Virus genome (UHGV): UHGV-1577189
Source of the DNA: a virus
DNA: 16,327 nucleotides
Direction: 5' to 3' (one strand)
Shown: positions 4,334-16,327 of the stretch, piece after piece
Position numbering within the stretch: the stretch's first letter is position 1
Layout: every line of letters starts with the position of its first letter
Program-made: the position numbers and the translations under genes
The notes under the pieces: generated by a model
Databases searched by the model: none
What the model saw: only the letters and a program-made list of their open reading frames with translations
Told to the model about the DNA's origin: nothing

Positions 4334-4380
4334 TGTCGAGGCGTCCTTATACATTTATATAAATATATAATTCTATATAC

Positions 4381-4398
4381 GGCGGGAGATATCCCGCC
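4381..4398 (-). terminator. GC hairpin downstream of the 4411..5478 gene, candidate terminator
   Basis: 7-bp stem GGCGGGA/TCCCGCC with 4-nt loop, followed on the minus strand by an AU-rich tract. Confidence 0.4.
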
Positions 4399-4410: not shown

Positions 4411-5478
4411 TCAGGCTTTCAATAGCGATTCTTTCAGATATCGGGCATCAGCCAGGGCGTTTGGAGTAATCTTGCGAACCCATGCATTACGGGTTGGACT
4501 CCACTTAAAGGCGCGTGATTTAAGCAGCGAACGAATGTTTGCCTCTGGTTTGCCAGGGAAATAAAACAGGATGCGGTTATCCTCTGGATCTATCTCCATA
4601 GAAAAGCCGTCGTATTCTTCGCGCTGTGCTCCTGTTACAGACTTGACCGATTCAAGCTCCTTAATACGGCTCTGTAGTCGTTTGATTTCGGCCTTATTGT
4701 TGCTCAGTGCGTATGAAGGGAATCCGATGTGCCCACAGAAATCTCCGGCCAGTAACTCTTTGGCTTCGCTTTCTGTAAACCTGAGATCGATTAATGCAGA
4801 AAGCTGCTGTAATTGGTCTTTTTTGTATTTGCGAATGGCCTTATTTGCTGCCTTCATTTTGACGTGTGACTTCATGCAGCCTTGCAGCTTACGAAGCAAC
4901 TTAAATAGCGCATCAGGATCATCAGACGAAATTCCATTACGACCAACACCTGCGGCTTTGCTCTCGTAGTGTGATGCTTTACTTTCGCATTCAACAAACG
5001 CTTTTCTGAATAACGCATCAGCTTTAGACAAACGGCGGCGATGGCCTTTCGCGCTATAATGGTCAACTAAAATCGGCTGGCCTAACGGGATCACATCCAA
5101 CAGGTCATGCGCTCGCTTATGCGCTACCGCACCTTCTTTTCTGGCTTTTTCTGCACGAGCAATATATCGGGCAAGACGCGCGTTCTGGCGTTCCTGATAG
5201 GTGTTTACGTAATCATCTCCGCGCTGCTGCTGTTCAAGCCATGCTTTGCGCAGATCTTCTGTTACGTCCACCAGCTCCGCAGGGATACAACCAGTTTGGG
5301 CTTCATAAGAGTAACCATCCTCATAGATACGCCCATCGTCTTCAACAAAGAAAAAGGTTTCGTGCTCATCGCTTTTGACCATACGACCATTAACATGGCG
5401 TAATAGGTAGCCAGTATCAGTGCTTAACAGGCTGTTAGGGTTGTTGATCCAGTCAGAAATAATTACTTGTTTATTCAT
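4411..5478 (-). CDS. DUF3560-like domain protein (355 aa), function unknown
   Basis: ATG with RBS GGAGAAA; C-terminal half (GQPILVDHYSAKGHRRR, ISSDDPDALFKLLRKL, FKWSPTRNAWVRK) matches my memory of the DUF3560 family. Confidence 0.7.
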   Translation of the reverse strand: MNKQVIISDWINNPNSLLSTDTGYLLRHVNGRMVKSDEHETFFFVEDDGRIYEDGYSYEAQTGCIPAELVDVTEDLRKAWLEQQQRGDDYVNTYQERQNARLARYIARAEKARKEGAVAHKRAHDLLDVIPLGQPILVDHYSAKGHRRRLSKADALFRKAFVECESKASHYESKAAGVGRNGISSDDPDALFKLLRKLQGCMKSHVKMKAANKAIRKYKKDQLQQLSALIDLRFTESEAKELLAGDFCGHIGFPSYALSNNKAEIKRLQSRIKELESVKSVTGAQREEYDGFSMEIDPEDNRILFYFPGKPEANIRSLLKSRAFKWSPTRNAWVRKITPNALADARYLKESLLKA

Positions 5479-5484
5479 CAGATT

Positions 5485-5580
5485 TCTCCGGTTTAACCAG
5501 GGCGGGTATCGCTCGGTTTCGGGTATAACCTTAGGAAATTTTTTCCCACCTGTAAAGCACTTTTTATATAAATCTATAAT
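5485..5580. repeat. 96-bp promoter/leader module, copy 1 (3 mismatches to 14556..14651)
   Basis: Direct comparison of the two segments; lies immediately upstream of the start codon at 5478. Confidence 0.85.
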
Positions 5581-5647
5581 TATATATTTATAGATTTTCG
5601 ATGTTCCCGATGTCTACACACCATCAAAACAGCTCAAAATGACACTT

Positions 5648-6025
5648 TCACTCTCTTCGCTTTTTCAAATAGTCGACAACATACGCCCTGGCTTTTGCCA
5701 GCTTCCGGCGATACTGTCTGAGACTAAGAGAAAGGGCGTGGGCTTTATCAATATGCGGTGCATTTATGTCGAGGCCCCGAATCTCCCACGCCCCGTATTC
5801 AATTCGGACAACCAGCGCCGCAGTCTCATCAACTACCGTGAGGGCCGTCACAGCTCCCTCGATACTGGTTTCCAGTGAGTCATTTGGTGCGCCGCCCCCT
5901 CCGGTAAACTGGCAACGCGTAACCATCATCATTTCTAACATCGACGCGAAACCGCTACGGGCGTTGCAGCCATTGCGCACCCACAGCGCCCATAGCTCAA
6001 ACAAGCTATCCAGATCGCGTCTCAC
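5648..6025 (-). CDS. Putative antitermination protein Q-like (125 aa); identity uncertain
   Basis: GTG start with RBS GGGAG; N-terminal LFELWALW resembles the LExWGxW start of small Q proteins from memory. It is the last gene of the nin-like operon and sits directly upstream of a promoter/leader module, which is the Q position in lambdoid phages. Confidence 0.4.
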   Translation of the reverse strand: MRRDLDSLFELWALWVRNGCNARSGFASMLEMMMVTRCQFTGGGGAPNDSLETSIEGAVTALTVVDETAALVVRIEYGAWEIRGLDINAPHIDKAHALSLSLRQYRRKLAKARAYVVDYLKKRRE

Positions 6026-7998: not shown

Positions 7999-8017
7999 TT
8001 AACGAACTCCAGTTAAA

Positions 8018-8135
8018 ACCACGATATGTGGTATTAAAACCACATATCGTGAGTTTTTCAATGGGCGAAACAAAAAATAACCTTCTATTTGTGGTCCACC
8101 TCTCGTCTTACCATGTGAAAACCACTAAATGTGGT
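8018..8135. promoter_or_regulatory. Operator cluster between divergent cro-like and cI-like genes
   Basis: ACCAC-GATAT-GTGGT (8018-8032), ACCAC-ATATC-GTGAG (8039-8053, imperfect), ACCAC-TAAAT-GTGGT (8121-8135), all in A-rich context. Confidence 0.6.
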
Positions 8136-8829: not shown

Positions 8830-8871
8830 TACACAGCACGGCGAAAGCCGTGCATTTCTACGCTCAAAAAA

Positions 8872-8886
8872 ACCACATTATGTGGT
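8872..8886. promoter_or_regulatory. Fourth ACCAC-N5-GTGGT operator (ACCAC-ATTAT-GTGGT) between the repressor gene and the next ORF
   Basis: Same palindrome family as 8018-8135; followed by TTGACA (8888-8893) and RBS AGAGG before the ATG at 8922. Confidence 0.5.
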
Positions 8887-8921
8887 TTTGACAACATGTA
8901 AAAGTATAAAAGAGGCTACGC

Positions 8922-9300: not shown

Positions 9301-9320
9301 AAGCGGGCTAACGCCCGCTT
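9301..9320 (+). terminator. Hairpin terminator candidate after the 8922..9296 gene
   Basis: 8-bp stem AAGCGGGC/GCCCGCTT with loop TAAC, followed by an A/T-rich tract. Confidence 0.4.
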
Positions 9321-9425
9321 ATATGATTATAGATTTATATAATTATATAAAACACTTTCCATCCGCCAAAAAGTTGGTTATGCTTACCTCGTTCTATAAA
9401 TATAGATTTATAGAATTATATAACC
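9321..9425. repeat. AT-rich repeat region upstream of parA (candidate centromere/operator)
   Basis: Two copies of ATAGATTTATA(T/G)AATTATATAA at 9321-9351 and 9394-9423; the same motif family recurs at 4354-4380, 5563-5597, 10099-10131 and 14634-14665. Confidence 0.5.
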
Positions 9426-9446
9426 AAACACATGGAGTCTCGACAA

Positions 9447-10100
9447 ATGACTATCTCTGTAGGTATTTTCAACGGAAAAGGCGGCGTAACCAAATCAACA
9501 ATTGCCCGTGCTTTAGCAGTTGCTTATGCAAAGGCTGGCTGGAATGTATGCCTGATCGATATGGATGTGCTTAACGGAACGGTAACGCGTTGGGTACAAC
9601 GCAGAATGGCCAACAATATCGAACCAGCAATCGCGGCGCAGCCGTGCGGCACACCATCACAAGTCCAGAAAATCATCGAATCAGAAGTATACGACCTGGT
9701 TATCGTTGATGGCGGTGCCTACGCATCTGAATCAGTACCGAAGCTATCTGAATTTCTGGATATGGTTATTTTGCCAACCCGATTCTCTACCGATGACCTG
9801 GAAACCACCGTTAACACTGCTCACGGCATCGTTAAAAAGGGTGTGCCAATCAAGAAAATTTGCATGGTGTTTTCCGGCGCGGCTGAAAATGAAGCTGACT
9901 ATATTGAAGCCCAAGAGTACCTGGCTAATACGCCATACTTTGTTGTCGATAAGTACATTCCCCACAAGCCAGCTCTGAGCAAAGCTCAGGATAAGGGCTT
10001 AAGCCTCATTGAATGCTCATACGTTGCGCCACGCAAAAAGGCAGACGACGTTATTCAGGGGATTATCAACCAGCTTGAGGCTCTGACTACTGCCGCGTAA
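9447..10100 (+). CDS. parA: ParA-family partition ATPase (small type Ib, no N-terminal HTH)
   Basis: Deviant Walker A GKGGVTKST; about 217 aa. ATG at 9447 is preferred over 9432 because GGAG lies 9 nt upstream. Confidence 0.85.
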   Translation: MTISVGIFNGKGGVTKSTIARALAVAYAKAGWNVCLIDMDVLNGTVTRWVQRRMANNIEPAIAAQPCGTPSQVQKIIESEVYDLVIVDGGAYASESVPKLSEFLDMVILPTRFSTDDLETTVNTAHGIVKKGVPIKKICMVFSGAAENEADYIEAQEYLANTPYFVVDKYIPHKPALSKAQDKGLSLIECSYVAPRKKADDVIQGIINQLEALTTAA

Positions 10101-10143
10101 TATATAATTATAGTTTTATAGATTTATATAAGAGGGGATACAC

Positions 10144-10392
10144 ATGGCCGCACCATCAAAACCACCAAAGAAGAACAGCAAAGGCGTACCGCCATCGATC
10201 GAACAACCGCAGGTTTTCGACCCGACTGAAACGCCAACCAGAACCAAATCAGGTGGGGCACAAATGGCGTTTAACGTCGACCCTGAATTTAAACGCGAGT
10301 ACAAAACGTTCGCCAGTTCAATGGATATGTCATTGAAAGAAGTGCTGACAAAATCTTTTGAGTTACTCAAGGCTCAATACAACCAGAAGTAA
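10144..10392 (+). CDS. ParG-like ribbon-helix-helix centromere-binding protein
   Basis: 82 aa, basic disordered N-terminus; C-terminal MAFNVDPEFKREYKTFASSMDMSLKEVL resembles the TP228 ParG RHH segment; RBS AAGAGGGG; directly downstream of parA. Confidence 0.6.
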   Translation: MAAPSKPPKKNSKGVPPSIEQPQVFDPTETPTRTKSGGAQMAFNVDPEFKREYKTFASSMDMSLKEVLTKSFELLKAQYNQK

Positions 10393-10733: not shown

Positions 10734-10792
10734 TCTTACGGTATATAAGCTACTGCAATGGTAAACAGCTATCAAATGCAGGTTGCAGTAAA

Positions 10793-10812
10793 AAAGGCCC
10801 CCGAAGGGGCCT
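10793..10812 (-). terminator. Rho-independent terminator for the small peptide gene
   Basis: Stem AGGCCCC/GGGGCCT with loop CGAA; a T-run follows on the minus strand. Confidence 0.5.
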
Positions 10813-10817
10813 AATCG

Positions 10818-10940
10818 CTACTTGCTGCTAATGTTTATCGTCACATTCAGAGCGTTATCAGTAATCTTCCAACCCTCCCCATGTGGCGTAAACAAAGCTC
10901 CAGTAACAACGATAAAAATACACATGTAGTATTTTTTCAT
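10818..10940 (-). CDS. Small hydrophobic peptide (40 aa: MKKYYMCIFIVVTGALFTPHGEGWKITDNALNVTINISSK), candidate type I toxin-like membrane peptide
   Basis: ATG at 10940 with RBS AAGGG 8 nt upstream (the track start at 11000 is TTG); Lys-rich N-terminus then a hydrophobic segment; terminator immediately downstream. Confidence 0.4.
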   Translation of the reverse strand: MKKYYMCIFIVVTGALFTPHGEGWKITDNALNVTINISSK

Positions 10941-11219
10941 TGTGTGGCCCTTACAGGCCGTTTCACGGCATCCCCACCGACGAAAATGACGCGAGAGCAA
11001 GCACGCTGTTTGTGCCTGCGTGGTACGGCAAGTGGATAATCCTTTCCTGAAAGTCAGTGCCCGGGTGCGAATCGGCGGAAAGGCCCCAAGCCATATTACA
11101 CGTCATACCCTTCATAATGAAGGAATAAAAAACGCTTTTATTACATGAGATTACACGTAAATAAGTTAAAAACCTTCATTTTGCATGAGCTAATGAGCTA
11201 AATTTTTTTATATGAATAG

Positions 11220-11352: not shown

Positions 11353-11429
11353 TTTTTGTTTCTGCCTACCAATAAACCCACGCTATGTGGTTGTCTCTGT
11401 TAAAATCCCTCTGTATTGACATAAATGCG

Positions 11430-11528
11430 CCATTGGTGGACACTTTCCGAGCCGTAGCAAAATCTACGGTCGGGATTGGAACCCCGATAATCATCATGGC
11501 GCATACCGCGTTAGCGGTTTTTTTATGC
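11430..11528 (+). ncRNA. Candidate c4-like antisense RNA of an immI-type antirepressor module
   Basis: Three consecutive hairpins (CCGTAG/CTACGG; TCGGG-ATTGGAA-CCCGA; ACCGC-GTTA-GCGGT plus T7) upstream of a small ORF and ant; the loop GATTGGAACC recurs in the leader hairpin loop at 11638-11647. Confidence 0.35.
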
Positions 11529-11689
11529 GTAAAGCACTGCTACACCCAAATTATGGTGGGGCGTGCGGGGGAGTCGTAAGACTCGCCGGATTCCATGGTG
11601 ACCGGTAGTTCCAACCCTGTACGTCTCACCACCCAATGATTGGAACCAGACGGTGGTGAGTATCCTTAACCTTTAAGGGAACTATCACC

Positions 11690-11881
11690 ATGACAAACTT
11701 ACCCCATGACTATTACGTCAACCTCGTAAAGATCCTTCTCAAGAAAGCCTCATACGCCGATAAATTCCGCCTGGCTGAAATCATCGAGCGCGAAGCTATG
11801 CGCATCGCCAGCAACGATAACGCTGTTTCTGACGCAAAAATCTCCCTCGTAACCAAAGTAGTTATGGGAGGTGCAAAATGA
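11690..11881 (+). CDS. Small ORF (63 aa) translationally coupled to ant (icd-like position)
   Basis: RBS TAAGGGA; its stop overlaps the ant ATG (ATGA at 11878-11881); preceded by a 9-bp-stem leader hairpin at 11625-11662. Confidence 0.45.
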   Translation: MTNLPHDYYVNLVKILLKKASYADKFRLAEIIEREAMRIASNDNAVSDAKISLVTKVVMGGAK

Positions 11882-13023
11882 AAACGCTTCCGACCGTTAA
11901 CACCCTACAGCCTATCCTGCATAACCAAATCCCTGTCATTACTACCGAGTTACTAGCACAGCTTTACGGCACTGAGCCGGTGCGTATTCGCCAGAATCAT
12001 CATGAGAACAAAGCACGTTTCGTTGAAGGGAAACACTTTTTCAAAGTTGTTGGTAATGACCTTAAAGAATTGCGGGTAGCTTTAAACTACTCTCAAAATC
12101 CAGTTTCACCTAAAGTCCGCTCCCTCATCCTCTGGACAGAACGCGGGGCTGCACGTCACGCTAAAATGCTCGAAACCGATCAGGCGTGGGATGTATTCGA
12201 ACGGCTGGAAGACTGCTACTTCAACCAGAACGCGCAAACGGCCGCGACCGTAACCGTCTCACCAAACAATGCTCGTGAGGTTGTCGATACGCTCAACGCT
12301 AAACCAATGTATTACATTAAGGTGTGCAACAACGAGCCACTCACAACCTCAGCCGATGTTGCCCAGGCATTCAGCACCACAAACAATTCCATCGTTATGG
12401 CCATCGATGCGTTACGCATTCCTCGCACAGCTGCGGCGCGTCACTTCTTTAAAGAGCAACGACCGCTGGAAGGAAGCGACCGCGAAATAACAATCTATCG
12501 CATGACAAAAGACGGATTTACCTTGCTCATGGAGAGCATCGACGGTCCAAGCGTGAAAGATATCAAGCTGGCCTACATTGAAGCCTTTAACGCTATCAGC
12601 AGCGTGTTAAAAACACAGTACGAGCGTGATCTGGCTAAACGACTATACCAGGAAAAAACGATTATCCGCGCGGCAACAGAGCATAATCGGCTATTAACGG
12701 AACCGAACTACAGGAAGGAACTAATCAAGGAGTTTGACAAGGCAACAGGGAAAACCAAAGCGGCGCTAAGTCTGCCAGCAATGACTCAGGAAAATGTGAT
12801 ATCAGCCTTACTTCTTGATCTGCTCAGAAACGCCAGAGCACTTATCAGCTTTGACGAAAACCTGAATCCTCAGCTCAAGCTACTACCACCGACAGGCAAA
12901 GTAGTCGACCAAGCAGAACACAACAGCATACTCAGCGTACTGGATGCAAACCTGCCAGCCAGGACACTACAGGATCTGATAAAAACATGTGCTGATAAGC
13001 TGGCACAGAAAAGCAGACCATAA
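11878..13023 (+). CDS. ant: Phage antirepressor Ant
   Basis: 381 aa; N-terminal ITTELLAQLYGTEPVRIRQNHHENKARFVEGKHFFKVVGNDLKEL and SLILWTERGAARHAKMLETDQAWDVFERLEDCYF match the antirepressor N-terminal domain; RBS GGGAGG. Confidence 0.8.
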   Translation: MKTLPTVNTLQPILHNQIPVITTELLAQLYGTEPVRIRQNHHENKARFVEGKHFFKVVGNDLKELRVALNYSQNPVSPKVRSLILWTERGAARHAKMLETDQAWDVFERLEDCYFNQNAQTAATVTVSPNNAREVVDTLNAKPMYYIKVCNNEPLTTSADVAQAFSTTNNSIVMAIDALRIPRTAAARHFFKEQRPLEGSDREITIYRMTKDGFTLLMESIDGPSVKDIKLAYIEAFNAISSVLKTQYERDLAKRLYQEKTIIRAATEHNRLLTEPNYRKELIKEFDKATGKTKAALSLPAMTQENVISALLLDLLRNARALISFDENLNPQLKLLPPTGKVVDQAEHNSILSVLDANLPARTLQDLIKTCADKLAQKSRP

Positions 13024-14168: not shown

Positions 14169-14549
14169 TTACTTAACGAGGAATAAAAATGGTTTATTGT
14201 TCGGCGGTGTAATCGGGGCTGGCTCGCTTTTGCTCATGCGATCAGTGTACCAGGCCAGCTCCTTGTCAAAGTAAGCCTGATTAAAATAGGCCATGAATGT
14301 AGTTTCAAATCCATAACGACCGCTAATACGCAGCATCTGATTGCCGTTCTCTGTTTCCAGATATACCTGGGCACGTTCCTGATTCTCCTTCAGCCAGGTT
14401 AAAGCCTCATCGCACGAGGACACACGGTACTCATCATCGTAGCCGTCATCGATGCGGCTTGAAGAAGAACGGCAAATCACGCCAACAGAACCAGCCAGGA
14501 TAGTTTGAATTTTAAGGAAAGCATTTTTGCGGATTTTAATCATGCTCAT
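14169..14549 (-). CDS. Hypothetical protein (126 aa) driven by the duplicated promoter/leader module
   Basis: ATG with RBS GGAGA in the conserved leader; no family recognised. Confidence 0.6.
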   Translation of the reverse strand: MSMIKIRKNAFLKIQTILAGSVGVICRSSSSRIDDGYDDEYRVSSCDEALTWLKENQERAQVYLETENGNQMLRISGRYGFETTFMAYFNQAYFDKELAWYTDRMSKSEPAPITPPNNKPFLFLVK

Positions 14550-14555
14550 CGGGTT

Positions 14556-14651
14556 ATCTCCGGTTTAACCAGGGCGGGTATCGCTCGGTTTCGGTTATAA
14601 CCTTAGGAAATTTTTTCCCACCTGTAAAGCATTTTTTATATAAATATATAA
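14556..14651. repeat. 96-bp promoter/leader module, copy 2 (3 mismatches to 5485..5580)
   Basis: Direct comparison of the two segments; immediately upstream of the start codon at 14549. Confidence 0.85.
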
Positions 14652-14672
14652 TTATATAATTCTATGAGCACA

Positions 14673-15603: not shown

Positions 15604-15894
15604 CTATTTTTGTGACTTTACTCCTGGCATATGGACTTCCCAGCGACGAATCCCCATAGCTGCGCAAAAATCAGCCACATAATTCAATCCCGCCCATTCG
15701 CGGATACCACCACGGGCTTTTTCAATGAAAACGGCAATCCCTTTTTTATTGAGAGCAAAAAGCCGCCAGCTTTTTGTCACTTCGTCCTGGGTAGCCACAA
15801 CACAAGTGAAAGCTCCCATGCGATACAGGTCCAAGAACTCTTTGCGTGTTTTGCGTACAAGTTCCATAACAAACCTCATATTTGCATGTTTCAA
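15604..15894 (-). CDS. Hypothetical protein (96 aa), second gene of an overlapping two-gene cassette
   Basis: ATGA overlap with the upstream HTH gene at 15891-15894; no family recognised. Confidence 0.5.
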   Translation of the reverse strand: MKHANMRFVMELVRKTRKEFLDLYRMGAFTCVVATQDEVTKSWRLFALNKKGIAVFIEKARGGIREWAGLNYVADFCAAMGIRRWEVHMPGVKSQK

Positions 15895-16178
15895 ACATCT
15901 GTTTTGTTATCAATGAAGATTAACCCTAACCCAGCGAAGTAACACAGCAGCGCCCAGGCTGCATACGGAATGCTGGATCTGGATGTGGACTCCTTTAACA
16001 TCTGCCAGTTGCGAACATTGCGACTATCTTTTAAGCCAAGTTTTTTGGCCAACTGCGATCCGCTCATTCCGGTCAGGCCAATGACTGCCCGAACTTCTCC
16101 ACATGTAGGAGATTCCCATTCATCCGCTTTTTTTAAACAAGCCGGATTCAACATTTTTAAAACAGTATCTTTATCCAT
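15891..16178 (-). CDS. HTH protein with C-terminal hydrophobic (possible transmembrane) segment
   Basis: ATG at 16178 with RBS GGAG 6 nt upstream; HTH-like VIGLTGMSGSQLAKKLGL then IPYAAWALLCYFAGLGLIFI. Confidence 0.55.
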   Translation of the reverse strand: MDKDTVLKMLNPACLKKADEWESPTCGEVRAVIGLTGMSGSQLAKKLGLKDSRNVRNWQMLKESTSRSSIPYAAWALLCYFAGLGLIFIDNKTDV

Positions 16179-16208
16179 AACCATCTCCATTTATTATATC
16201 TACGATGG

Positions 16209-16225
16209 TAGGAAATCTTTTCCTA
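16209..16225. promoter_or_regulatory. Inverted repeat TAGGAAA-TCT-TTTCCTA upstream of the HTH gene (operator candidate)
   Basis: Perfect 7-bp arms; a related palindrome GAAAC-GAT-GTTTC lies at 16282-16294 (also 59-71). Confidence 0.4.
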
Positions 16226-16272
16226 TGTGGCAATAGAAATTTACTACATTGCGTATAAGACAAGTTTTCTAT

Positions 16273-16327
16273 GTCTAATAGGAAACGATGTTTCTTACGT
16301 TTTATCGCGTTCTGATGGCTACTGTGT
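16273..16327. repeat. Terminal overlap copy 2 (identical to 50..104)
   Basis: Exact 55-nt match to the start of the biological sequence. Confidence 0.85.

Follow-up and report, generated by a model that had tools for sequence, protein, structure and literature searches.

The closest described relatives of the locus analysed here are the kil-kor promoters of IncP-1 plasmids, where several near-identical promoters of one replicon are controlled by a KorC-family repressor encoded by the element itself. The promoters klcAp, kleAp, and kleCp of RK2/RP4 are KorC-regulated (Thomas et al. 1988, as cited in PMC7314908), and klcA of RP4, which is held very low by KorA together with KorC, shows a ~224-fold rise upon entry into a new cell (PMC7314908). 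Aca regulators of anti-CRISPR operons act in a similar manner, and Aca11 controls two near-identical promoters (PMC12658196). A further type is represented by lambda Q and AlpA, whose binding elements lie between the -35 and the -10 and of which AlpA serves two promoters (PMC7969949), and by Q21, which binds direct repeats (10.1101/651190). Here we describe a cassette that is repeated within a family of phage-plasmids and compare it with these systems. Its sequence features make it fairly probable that the copies form a kil-kor-style regulon, in which a modular promoter-operator-leader cassette would be jointly repressed by a KorC-like protein and a partition protein and would deliver a burst of expression upon entry.

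The whole stretch of DNA that was analysed, referred to below as the window, is 16,327 nt long and comprises the replication, partition, and immunity region of a phage-plasmid family of ~48 kb. This family includes 60-odd plasmid records in E. coli, Salmonella, and Klebsiella, a plasmid of E. coli ATCC 25922 among them, as well as three isolated Yersinia myophages. Bases 1-49 of the window are Illumina Nextera adapter (…GTCTCGTGGGCTCGGAGATGTGTATAAGAGACAG), and bases 50-104 are repeated exactly at 16273-16327, which means that the window derives from an assembly contig of 16,223 bp that is circularly permuted and has an adapter tip. About 31 kb of the 48-kb plasmids is absent from it, namely the lysis, methylase, head, tail, and tail-fibre genes and the third copy of the cassette. 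The deletion junction lies near 2393-2395 (region 2380-2410), in the TC core of a DNA-invertase crossover site (TTCGCAAAAACC TC / CTTTATTGCG) that is joined to a look-alike site from elsewhere, and this suggests that the ~31-kb deletion is either a mini-plasmid made by the invertase or an assembly artefact. Rfam matches in the window comprise ryfA, isrK, and a P1-type C4 antisense RNA, located just upstream of a small ORF and of an antirepressor-like gene of 381 aa; the set of C4 RNA, small ORF, and antirepressor-like gene looks like a P1 immI-like (c4-icd-ant) immunity module, with coordinates 10790-11088 (minus strand), 11451-11524, 11549-11636, and 11690-13023 (all plus strand). Literature searches on phage names and DUF3560 returned nothing about this element.

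A preliminary description of the window had pointed to a 96-bp block duplicated ahead of two unrelated genes. The duplication is real: the segments 5485-5580 and 14557-14652 show 3 mismatches in 96 nt, and the block ends at the start codons of the following genes. Copy 1 had been placed correctly, but copy 2 had been given as 14556-14651, one base off, a register that yields 56 mismatches. The full repeat extends to 108 nt (5485-5592 and 14557-14664) with 5 mismatches, at 5523, 5560, 5574, 5587, and 5590. It is far above chance expectation and is shared beyond this contig. The similarity between the copies stops at the start codons, and both cassettes and both downstream genes lie on the minus strand. 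These payload genes are as follows.

4411-5478, minus strand: payload gene 1, encoding a 355-aa DUF3560 protein (PF12083, Pfam E 3.7e-31)
14169-14549, minus strand: payload gene 2, encoding a 126-aa protein of PHROG 8090, without a Pfam family

pO157 likewise has DUF3560 among its SOS-induced genes, with ssb and an antirestriction gene nearby (PMC11125564). Neither Pfam nor PDB, when searched with single sequences, gave a match to the 126-aa protein or to the 125-aa and 82-aa proteins discussed below.

The preliminary description had also proposed a search for the block in other plasmids and prophages, and most of it is indeed present in 62 plasmid records and 3 Yersinia phage records. Full-length relatives carry the block at three places in each record, among the matches listed. 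In the ATCC 25922 plasmid, which was checked directly, copy 3 directly adjoins the stop codon of an MT-A70 methylase gene; behind it lies an 89-aa gene, the first in a run of genes toward the terminase and structural genes. This third copy is absent from the window because the window is a 16.2-kb circular deletion derivative.

The comparison of cassette anatomy covered E. coli, two variants from Salmonella, and a phage-plasmid of the siphovirus type from Serratia, together with three more lineages that were reached via homologs of neighbouring genes. In the window, the two copies are composed of the following parts.

5564-5595, minus strand: copy 1, four 8-bp boxes (ATCTATAA ATATATAA TTATAGAT TTATATAA), ending 7 nt upstream of the -35
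5528-5556, minus strand: copy 1, sigma-70-type promoter with TTTACA (5556-5551), a 17-nt spacer, and TAAGGT (5533-5528)
5532-5548, minus strand: copy 1, 17-bp palindrome TGGGAAAAAATTTCCTA, a putative operator in the spacer, whose last TA begins the -10
5495-5518, minus strand: copy 1, leader stem-loop AACCG-A-GCG-AUACC-CGC-CC-UGGUU
5476-5489, minus strand: copy 1, Shine-Dalgarno GGAG (5489-5486) and ATG of the DUF3560 gene (5478-5476)
14636-14667, minus strand: copy 2, 8-bp box array, directly after the intrinsic terminator of higBA (14698-14676)
14600-14628, minus strand: copy 2, promoter with TTTACA (14628-14623), TAAGGT (14605-14600), and the palindrome (14604-14620)
14567-14590, minus strand: copy 2, leader stem-loop (z -3.3), followed by GGAG (14561-14558) and ATG (14549-14547)

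The promoter is variable in sequence and constant in layout. Its -35 is TTTACA, TTGCAG, TTGTCG, or TTGTAA across lineages, and a -10 of the form TAnnnT at 17 bp is kept in five of them (TAAGGT, TATGGT, TAGTGT, TATTCT, TAATAT, TATTAT, and TATAAT), the perfect TATAAT being found in one lineage. A simple scan for sigma-70 promoters made no call at the cassette, because TTTACA-17-TAAGGT scores 8/12 and the scan applies a 9/12 rule. As the strong higBA terminator directly precedes copy 2, this copy must start its own transcript. The idea of a promoter/leader module reused before unrelated genes is thus borne out, whereas its reading as a block transcribed in full as a 5' UTR is not: the block itself holds the -35, the spacer, and the -10, and only its last ~45 nt are leader. 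A pattern scan of genome contigs gave chance matches only, in unrelated phyla.

The leader, ~45 nt in each cassette, presents first the stem-loop and then a strong ribosome-binding site with GGAG, followed by ATG, the stem-loop beginning 2-4 nt after the predicted transcript start (~5520 in copy 1). Structure prediction for the leader RNA, as the preliminary description had advised, found this stem-loop, and its pairing is preserved in 72/72 cells (12 sequences from five lineages, few of which are independent). Three of the stem pairs show compensatory changes, twice from AU to GC and once in a series GC>GU>AU, which argues for an RNA structure in the leader. One might therefore think of control at the RNA level, with the stem-loop as the main target of a translational repressor, an sRNA, or an Aca2-like HTH protein and with a constitutive promoter. 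The hairpin, which is backed by the compensatory changes, has the ribosome-binding site just downstream of it, and Aca2 is reported to bind RNA in addition to DNA (cited in PMC12658196). However, the ribosome-binding site is free in the conserved fold, no Rfam family matches the leader (Rfam at gathering and E-value thresholds gave nothing at the cassette), and the sequence of the stem varies by lineage while the loop is loosely kept, which is more in keeping with a structural or stabilising function than with a site of specific binding. We regard RNA-level control as very unlikely, and the 5' stem-loop probably stabilises the transcripts.

In Salmonella, the three copies are mutually identical over ~105 nt and show about ten differences from those of E. 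coli. Within the E. coli type of element, the copy that carries a given 3' end variant (AAATCTG or ATAACCCG) changes from genome to genome, and the same is true of the -10 variants TAAGGT and TATGGT. This is the pattern of ongoing gene conversion, which would keep the copies alike. The same facts, namely an identity of 95-100% within one genome and the exchange of 3' end variants between copies, could also be taken to indicate a recent recombination scar or a small mobile repeat without a regulatory role, the former having been named in the preliminary description as an outcome that would speak against a module. However, E. coli and Salmonella carry their copies at the same three positions, Serratia has homologous three-copy cassettes before other genes, and further lineages carry the cassette at 60-70% identity. 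The repeat also ends exactly at the start codons, is devoid of terminal inverted repeats and target duplications, and has its conserved positions in the promoter and the hairpin. Conservation of both position and architecture across lineages rules out a recent scar, and a repeat of either kind without regulatory role is extremely improbable.

The spacer holds a palindrome of the type TAGGAAA-N3-TTTCCTA, which spans 17 bp and whose last two bases open the -10. The E. coli cassettes have TGGGAAAAAATTTCCTA, with one mismatch in the left arm (TGGGAAA); the Salmonella form is TAGGAAAATATTTCCTA, that of Serratia is TAGGAAAAAAAGTCCTA, and two other lineages share TAGGACTAAAAGTCCTA. The pattern RGGA-N7-TCCTA has 3 sites in the window against 0.19 expected. 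With the pattern RGG-N8/9-TCCTAnnnT, exactly four forward-strand promoter sites are obtained per complete genome in E. coli, Salmonella, and Serratia, and in each of them three of the four belong to the cassettes and one to the promoter of a homolog of one 99-aa gene, the encoded homologs being 72% and 32% identical. The inner base of the half-site shifts by lineage in all four sites jointly (TTTCCTA vs AGTCCTA). In the window, the 99-aa gene and its promoter are located as follows.

16205-16233, minus strand: promoter of the 99-aa gene, with TTGCCA, CA-TAGGAAAAGATTTCC, and TACCAT (17 bp) and a perfect palindrome at 16209-16225
15891-16190, minus strand: 99-aa KorC-family HTH protein, the proposed repressor on the basis of profile matches and an IncP relative; its true start is probably at 16178

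This promoter has neither a box array nor a hairpin leader, and the palindromic promoter is kept before the homolog of the 99-aa gene in the Salmonella and Serratia relatives. With the profile of the 99-aa family, matches were obtained to AcrIF24, in its C-terminal HTH domain (E 5e-8), and to Aca3 (E 0.0045). A relative that is 52% identical to the 99-aa protein (P0164) is encoded after klcA-klcB in an IncP-1-type backbone, that is, at the korC position, and relatives of P0164 are annotated as KorC.

That the spacer dyad is conserved and not covarying argues for a protein site. The alternative of an RNA helix was rejected on the same ground, and one of its pairs is broken in one lineage. Two other candidate binders were also rejected. 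The CI-like repressor has a different palindrome, AACCAC-N6-GTGGTT, between its gene and the divergent early operon, which is taken to be its operator. Palindromes of this kind occur in the window at 8013-8056, 8867-8896, and 1613-1637, that is, in the divergent region beside the CI-like (HTH and S24 peptidase) gene, after that gene, and between the repA and invertase genes, and the set is probably a CI-like repressor regulon. The 190-aa HTH regulator of relatives is missing from the window, and other lineages retain the palindrome without it; its gene occupies the place corresponding to 11363-11374 in pHN68-3 and in the ATCC 25922 plasmid, both of them close relatives.

The IncP plasmids allow the cassette to be placed. 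At the klcA promoter of an IncP-type plasmid (L041), the sequence GTTTAGCTAAAC, the KorA operator, is followed by TAGGGCATTATGCCCTA and then by TAAT (-10 TATAAT), and the klcA leader reads ...ACCGAGC...CAAACCGGAGAAAGACCGATG. From the palindrome to the start codon the two sequences align in register, which makes the cassette a relative of the klcA/kle promoters that KorC controls in the kil-kor regulon. The features in common are several near-identical promoters per replicon (here three cassettes plus the repressor promoter, in three complete genomes), a 17-bp TAGG-N9-CCTA palindrome running into the -10 (here at 5532-5548, 14604-14620, and 16209-16225), a KorC-family repressor encoded by the element itself, sites of a second global regulator (putative here) just upstream, and a homologous leader (ACCGAGC ... 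CAAACCGGAGA ... GATG). There are also differences. The host is a phage-plasmid here and a conjugative plasmid in IncP-1, the core of the palindrome is GGAAA...TTTCC rather than GGGCA...TGCCC, and the payload genes are others. The KorA operator is replaced by four 8-bp boxes linked to a ParG-type partition protein; a search of the window for GTTTAGCTAAAC with up to 2 mismatches gave no match. Finally, the repressor's own promoter is here a separate, simpler member of the set.

The likeness to Aca-controlled anti-CRISPR operons lies in the HTH of the 99-aa family, with its matches to the AcrIF24 C-terminal domain and to Aca3, in a dimer-type inverted repeat inside a strong promoter, in the ability of one regulator to serve more than one near-identical promoter (Aca11), and in variable small genes downstream. 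Unlike the case for those operons, no known anti-CRISPR gene was identified downstream of the cassettes, where the genes carry no functional annotation, and the regulator is located outside the operon of three of its four presumed targets.

The second set of sites consists of the AT-rich boxes. An AT-rich motif ahead of each copy had been noted previously, and it is indeed present, with six four-box arrays in the window, all between genes, against 0 in shuffles; its earlier interpretation as a promoter, on the other hand, has to be abandoned, since the motif is an array of four 8-bp boxes that accompanies a ParA/small-protein pair.

9432-10100, plus strand: Walker-type ParA, with the promoter TTTCCA, 17 bp, TATGCT
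10144-10392, plus strand: 82-aa ParG-like protein, the proposed binder of the boxes on the basis of weak ribbon-helix-helix matches and co-occurrence with the boxes

Box arrays stand on either side of the parA promoter (9319-9350 and 9392-9423), and one more separates parA from the 82-aa gene (10100-10131). A box-bracketed parA promoter is found in 6/6 lineages, the box varying between TTATAKAW, TTAAATAW, and GATATAAA/TATATCTT. In the 82-aa protein, a strand-helix-helix pattern comes after a disordered, basic tail; the matches of the protein are weak, with an E of 0.06 to SvtR and an hhalign probability of 34% to a ParG sequence. An unrelated conjugative MOBC/T4SS plasmid encodes a ParA that is 45% identical and a small protein that is 39% identical, and has TTATAnAA arrays at parA, at the junction of parA and the small gene, and at two sites in the transfer operon. 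No homolog of the 125-aa Q-like protein discussed below was found in this plasmid. As the boxes occur with the par pair in a plasmid lacking the Q-like gene, they belong to the partition pair, and for the same reason the possibility that they are Q21-type 8-bp subsites was rejected.

Partition proteins that double as global regulators have precedents in omega of pSM19035 and KorB of RK2, and near-palindromic boxes with a period of 8 bp are the sites used by MetJ and ParG. With omega, ParG (TP228), and KorB, the present system shares short tandem repeats near promoters, a small protein encoded after a Walker ParA (its binding being putative here), sites spread across several operons, and an 8-bp period resembling the operators of ParG and MetJ. 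It differs in the box itself (TTATAKAW), in the fixed four-box format, and in that the fold of the 82-aa protein is weakly supported.

Several observations concern the boxes outside the cassette. In a cfr-carrying conjugative plasmid (L007, NZ_CP037908.1), a remnant of the cassette cut by IS26 lies beside higBA at 1444-1490, and the same 8-bp box arrays are located inside the type IV secretion operon, at 11984 and 13759, which suggests that the partition protein regulates transfer genes in NZ_CP037908.1. A second, short reusable cassette consists of a box array followed by GGAnnCTCGACAA(A)TG. It is found in the window at 4347-4381 (start 4354) and 9392-9434 and in relatives L006 (27727), L031 (6386), L032 (7006), and L037 (8122), and is common to parA, a 100-aa winged-helix-like gene, and unrelated genes of other lineages; the stretch from its array to the start codon showed no recognisable promoter. 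In relative L003, an extra box array (31392-31430) lies ahead of a tRNA-like sequence with a CAT anticodon (about 31560-31640, by eye), which, as in full-length relatives, sits between the lysis genes and the methylase gene. Another lineage has a tRNA-like stretch as well (L037 7519-8134, by eye).

The position of copy 1 raises the question of a late promoter of the Q type, as had been proposed from the outset, and the gene concerned is the following.

5648-6025, minus strand: 125-aa remote Q21/AlpA-family (sigma region 4-like) protein, encoded by the last gene of the early operon, upstream of copy 1

Copy 1 does lie directly after this gene, which ends at 5648, about 50 nt upstream of the array. 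As for the designation of the 125-aa ORF as Q-like, the protein is a remote relative of Q21/AlpA: its profile matches Q21 with an E of 1.1e-4, and Q21 is the best full-length fold match to an AF2 model built from 97 sequences, a model from a shallow alignment (pLDDT 58) having been discarded. A BFVD fold search with this protein gave matches to unnamed proteins only. Over its full length, the protein also matches the NCBIfam "PA0613 family" weakly (E 2.5e-4), PA0613 being a gene in the pyocin cluster of P. aeruginosa, beside its lysis genes.

According to the proposal, the cassette would be a Q-dependent late promoter, at which the 125-aa protein would bind the spacer element and load onto RNA polymerase, leading to read-through into lysis and structural genes. 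The gene order is lambdoid, with a CI-like S24 repressor and a divergent early operon that ends in Ref, DUF1064, and the Q-like gene, followed by cassette 1. The cassette is 0-1 genes downstream of the Q-like gene in 4/6 lineages, the distance being about 50 nt in E. coli and one gene lying between them in Salmonella, Serratia, and L037. As with the elements of lambda Q and of AlpA, which has two promoters (PMC7969949), the conserved element sits between the -35 and the -10, and the Q-like protein could bind the same spacer element. In addition, strong co-directional terminators are present after cassette 3 (L003 33133-33156 and 33832-33852) and before the holin gene (29739-29766), so that expression of the late genes would seem to require antitermination, or else additional promoters, in the full-length element. 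The two terminators after cassette 3 lie within 1.2 kb of it (0.5-1.2 kb), ahead of the packaging genes. In these respects, that is, a remote Q21-family gene just upstream, a conserved element between the -35 and the -10, and terminators further downstream in full-length relatives, the locus resembles the Q/AlpA cassettes of lambda PR', phage 21, and P. aeruginosa alpB.

However, the cassette differs from them in lacking both a sigma-dependent pause element and a promoter-proximal terminator. No conserved -10-like pause element occurs in the first 25 transcribed bases, where the early transcript offers only loops of the GATACC/CATACC type, which in most lineages have no T at position 6. No terminator separates the promoter from the first gene, and the only terminator candidates of this kind inside the window are hairpins without T-runs. 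Moreover, the spacer element is palindromic, suiting a symmetric dimer, while Q21 binds direct repeats (10.1101/651190). The same palindrome is found at the promoter of the KorC-family gene and at klcAp of IncP, where no Q protein exists, and relatives L031 and L032 have a different short cassette after the Q-like gene. Because of the missing pause element and proximal terminator, the shared palindrome, and this other short cassette, the link to Q is kept as a rival only, and we regard it as unlikely. That the palindrome is common to the promoter of the KorC-family repressor and that the cassette aligns with the IncP-1 klcA promoter points to repressor control and not to a wiring of the payload genes to a Q switch.

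In the kil-kor-style regulon that we favour, the palindrome would be the operator of the element's own 99-aa KorC-family repressor, whose promoter has this palindrome too, and the boxes would be bound by the ParG-like partner of ParA, doubling as a co-repressor. Once the plasmid is established, the cassettes would be held down by the 99-aa and ParG-like proteins. A naive cell that the DNA reaches through infection or transformation has neither repressor, so that the strong promoters would give a burst of expression of the payload genes (DUF3560, 126-aa, and 89-aa) there until the repressors accumulate. The 5' stem-loop would stabilise the cassette transcripts, and gene conversion would keep the copies similar. 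Such entry-burst expression, which we infer, resembles that of KorA/KorC at klcA/kle in IncP-1 and of Aca at anti-CRISPR operons, and it is by analogy only that an anti-defence or establishment role may be attributed to the payload genes.

A combination of both inputs can also be envisaged, namely a dual-input switch in which the palindrome is held by the KorC-like repressor in the plasmid state and becomes a Q21-like loading site after induction. We consider this decidedly unlikely. If true, three dispersed promoters would turn from repressed establishment promoters to terminator-proof late promoters, with the partition boxes as a third input, and the variable cassette genes would constitute a catalogue of anti-defence and host-takeover genes marked by their operator rather than by a neighbour.

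As a kind of system, the kil-kor-style regulon is already known from KorC/Aca-type repressed multi-copy promoters and from global regulation by partition proteins. The combination of the two and the phage-plasmid setting appear to be new to the literature. The family concerned is common in E. coli, comprising the plasmid of the reference strain ATCC 25922, many clinical isolates, and isolated Yersinia phages, and its regulation has essentially hardly been described so far. An IncP-style KorC operator/promoter cassette joined to partition-linked sites provides a concrete wiring diagram for it, and links the control of phage-plasmids to kil-kor and acr-aca logic, in which a burst of expression on entry is followed by shut-off. 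The cassettes also offer a clean example of concerted evolution in regulatory DNA. Finally, the genes behind the cassettes, including those for the DUF3560, 126-aa, and 89-aa proteins and other small genes in Serratia and other lineages, are candidates for establishment or anti-defence functions, and further candidates of this kind may be found by searching for the operator.
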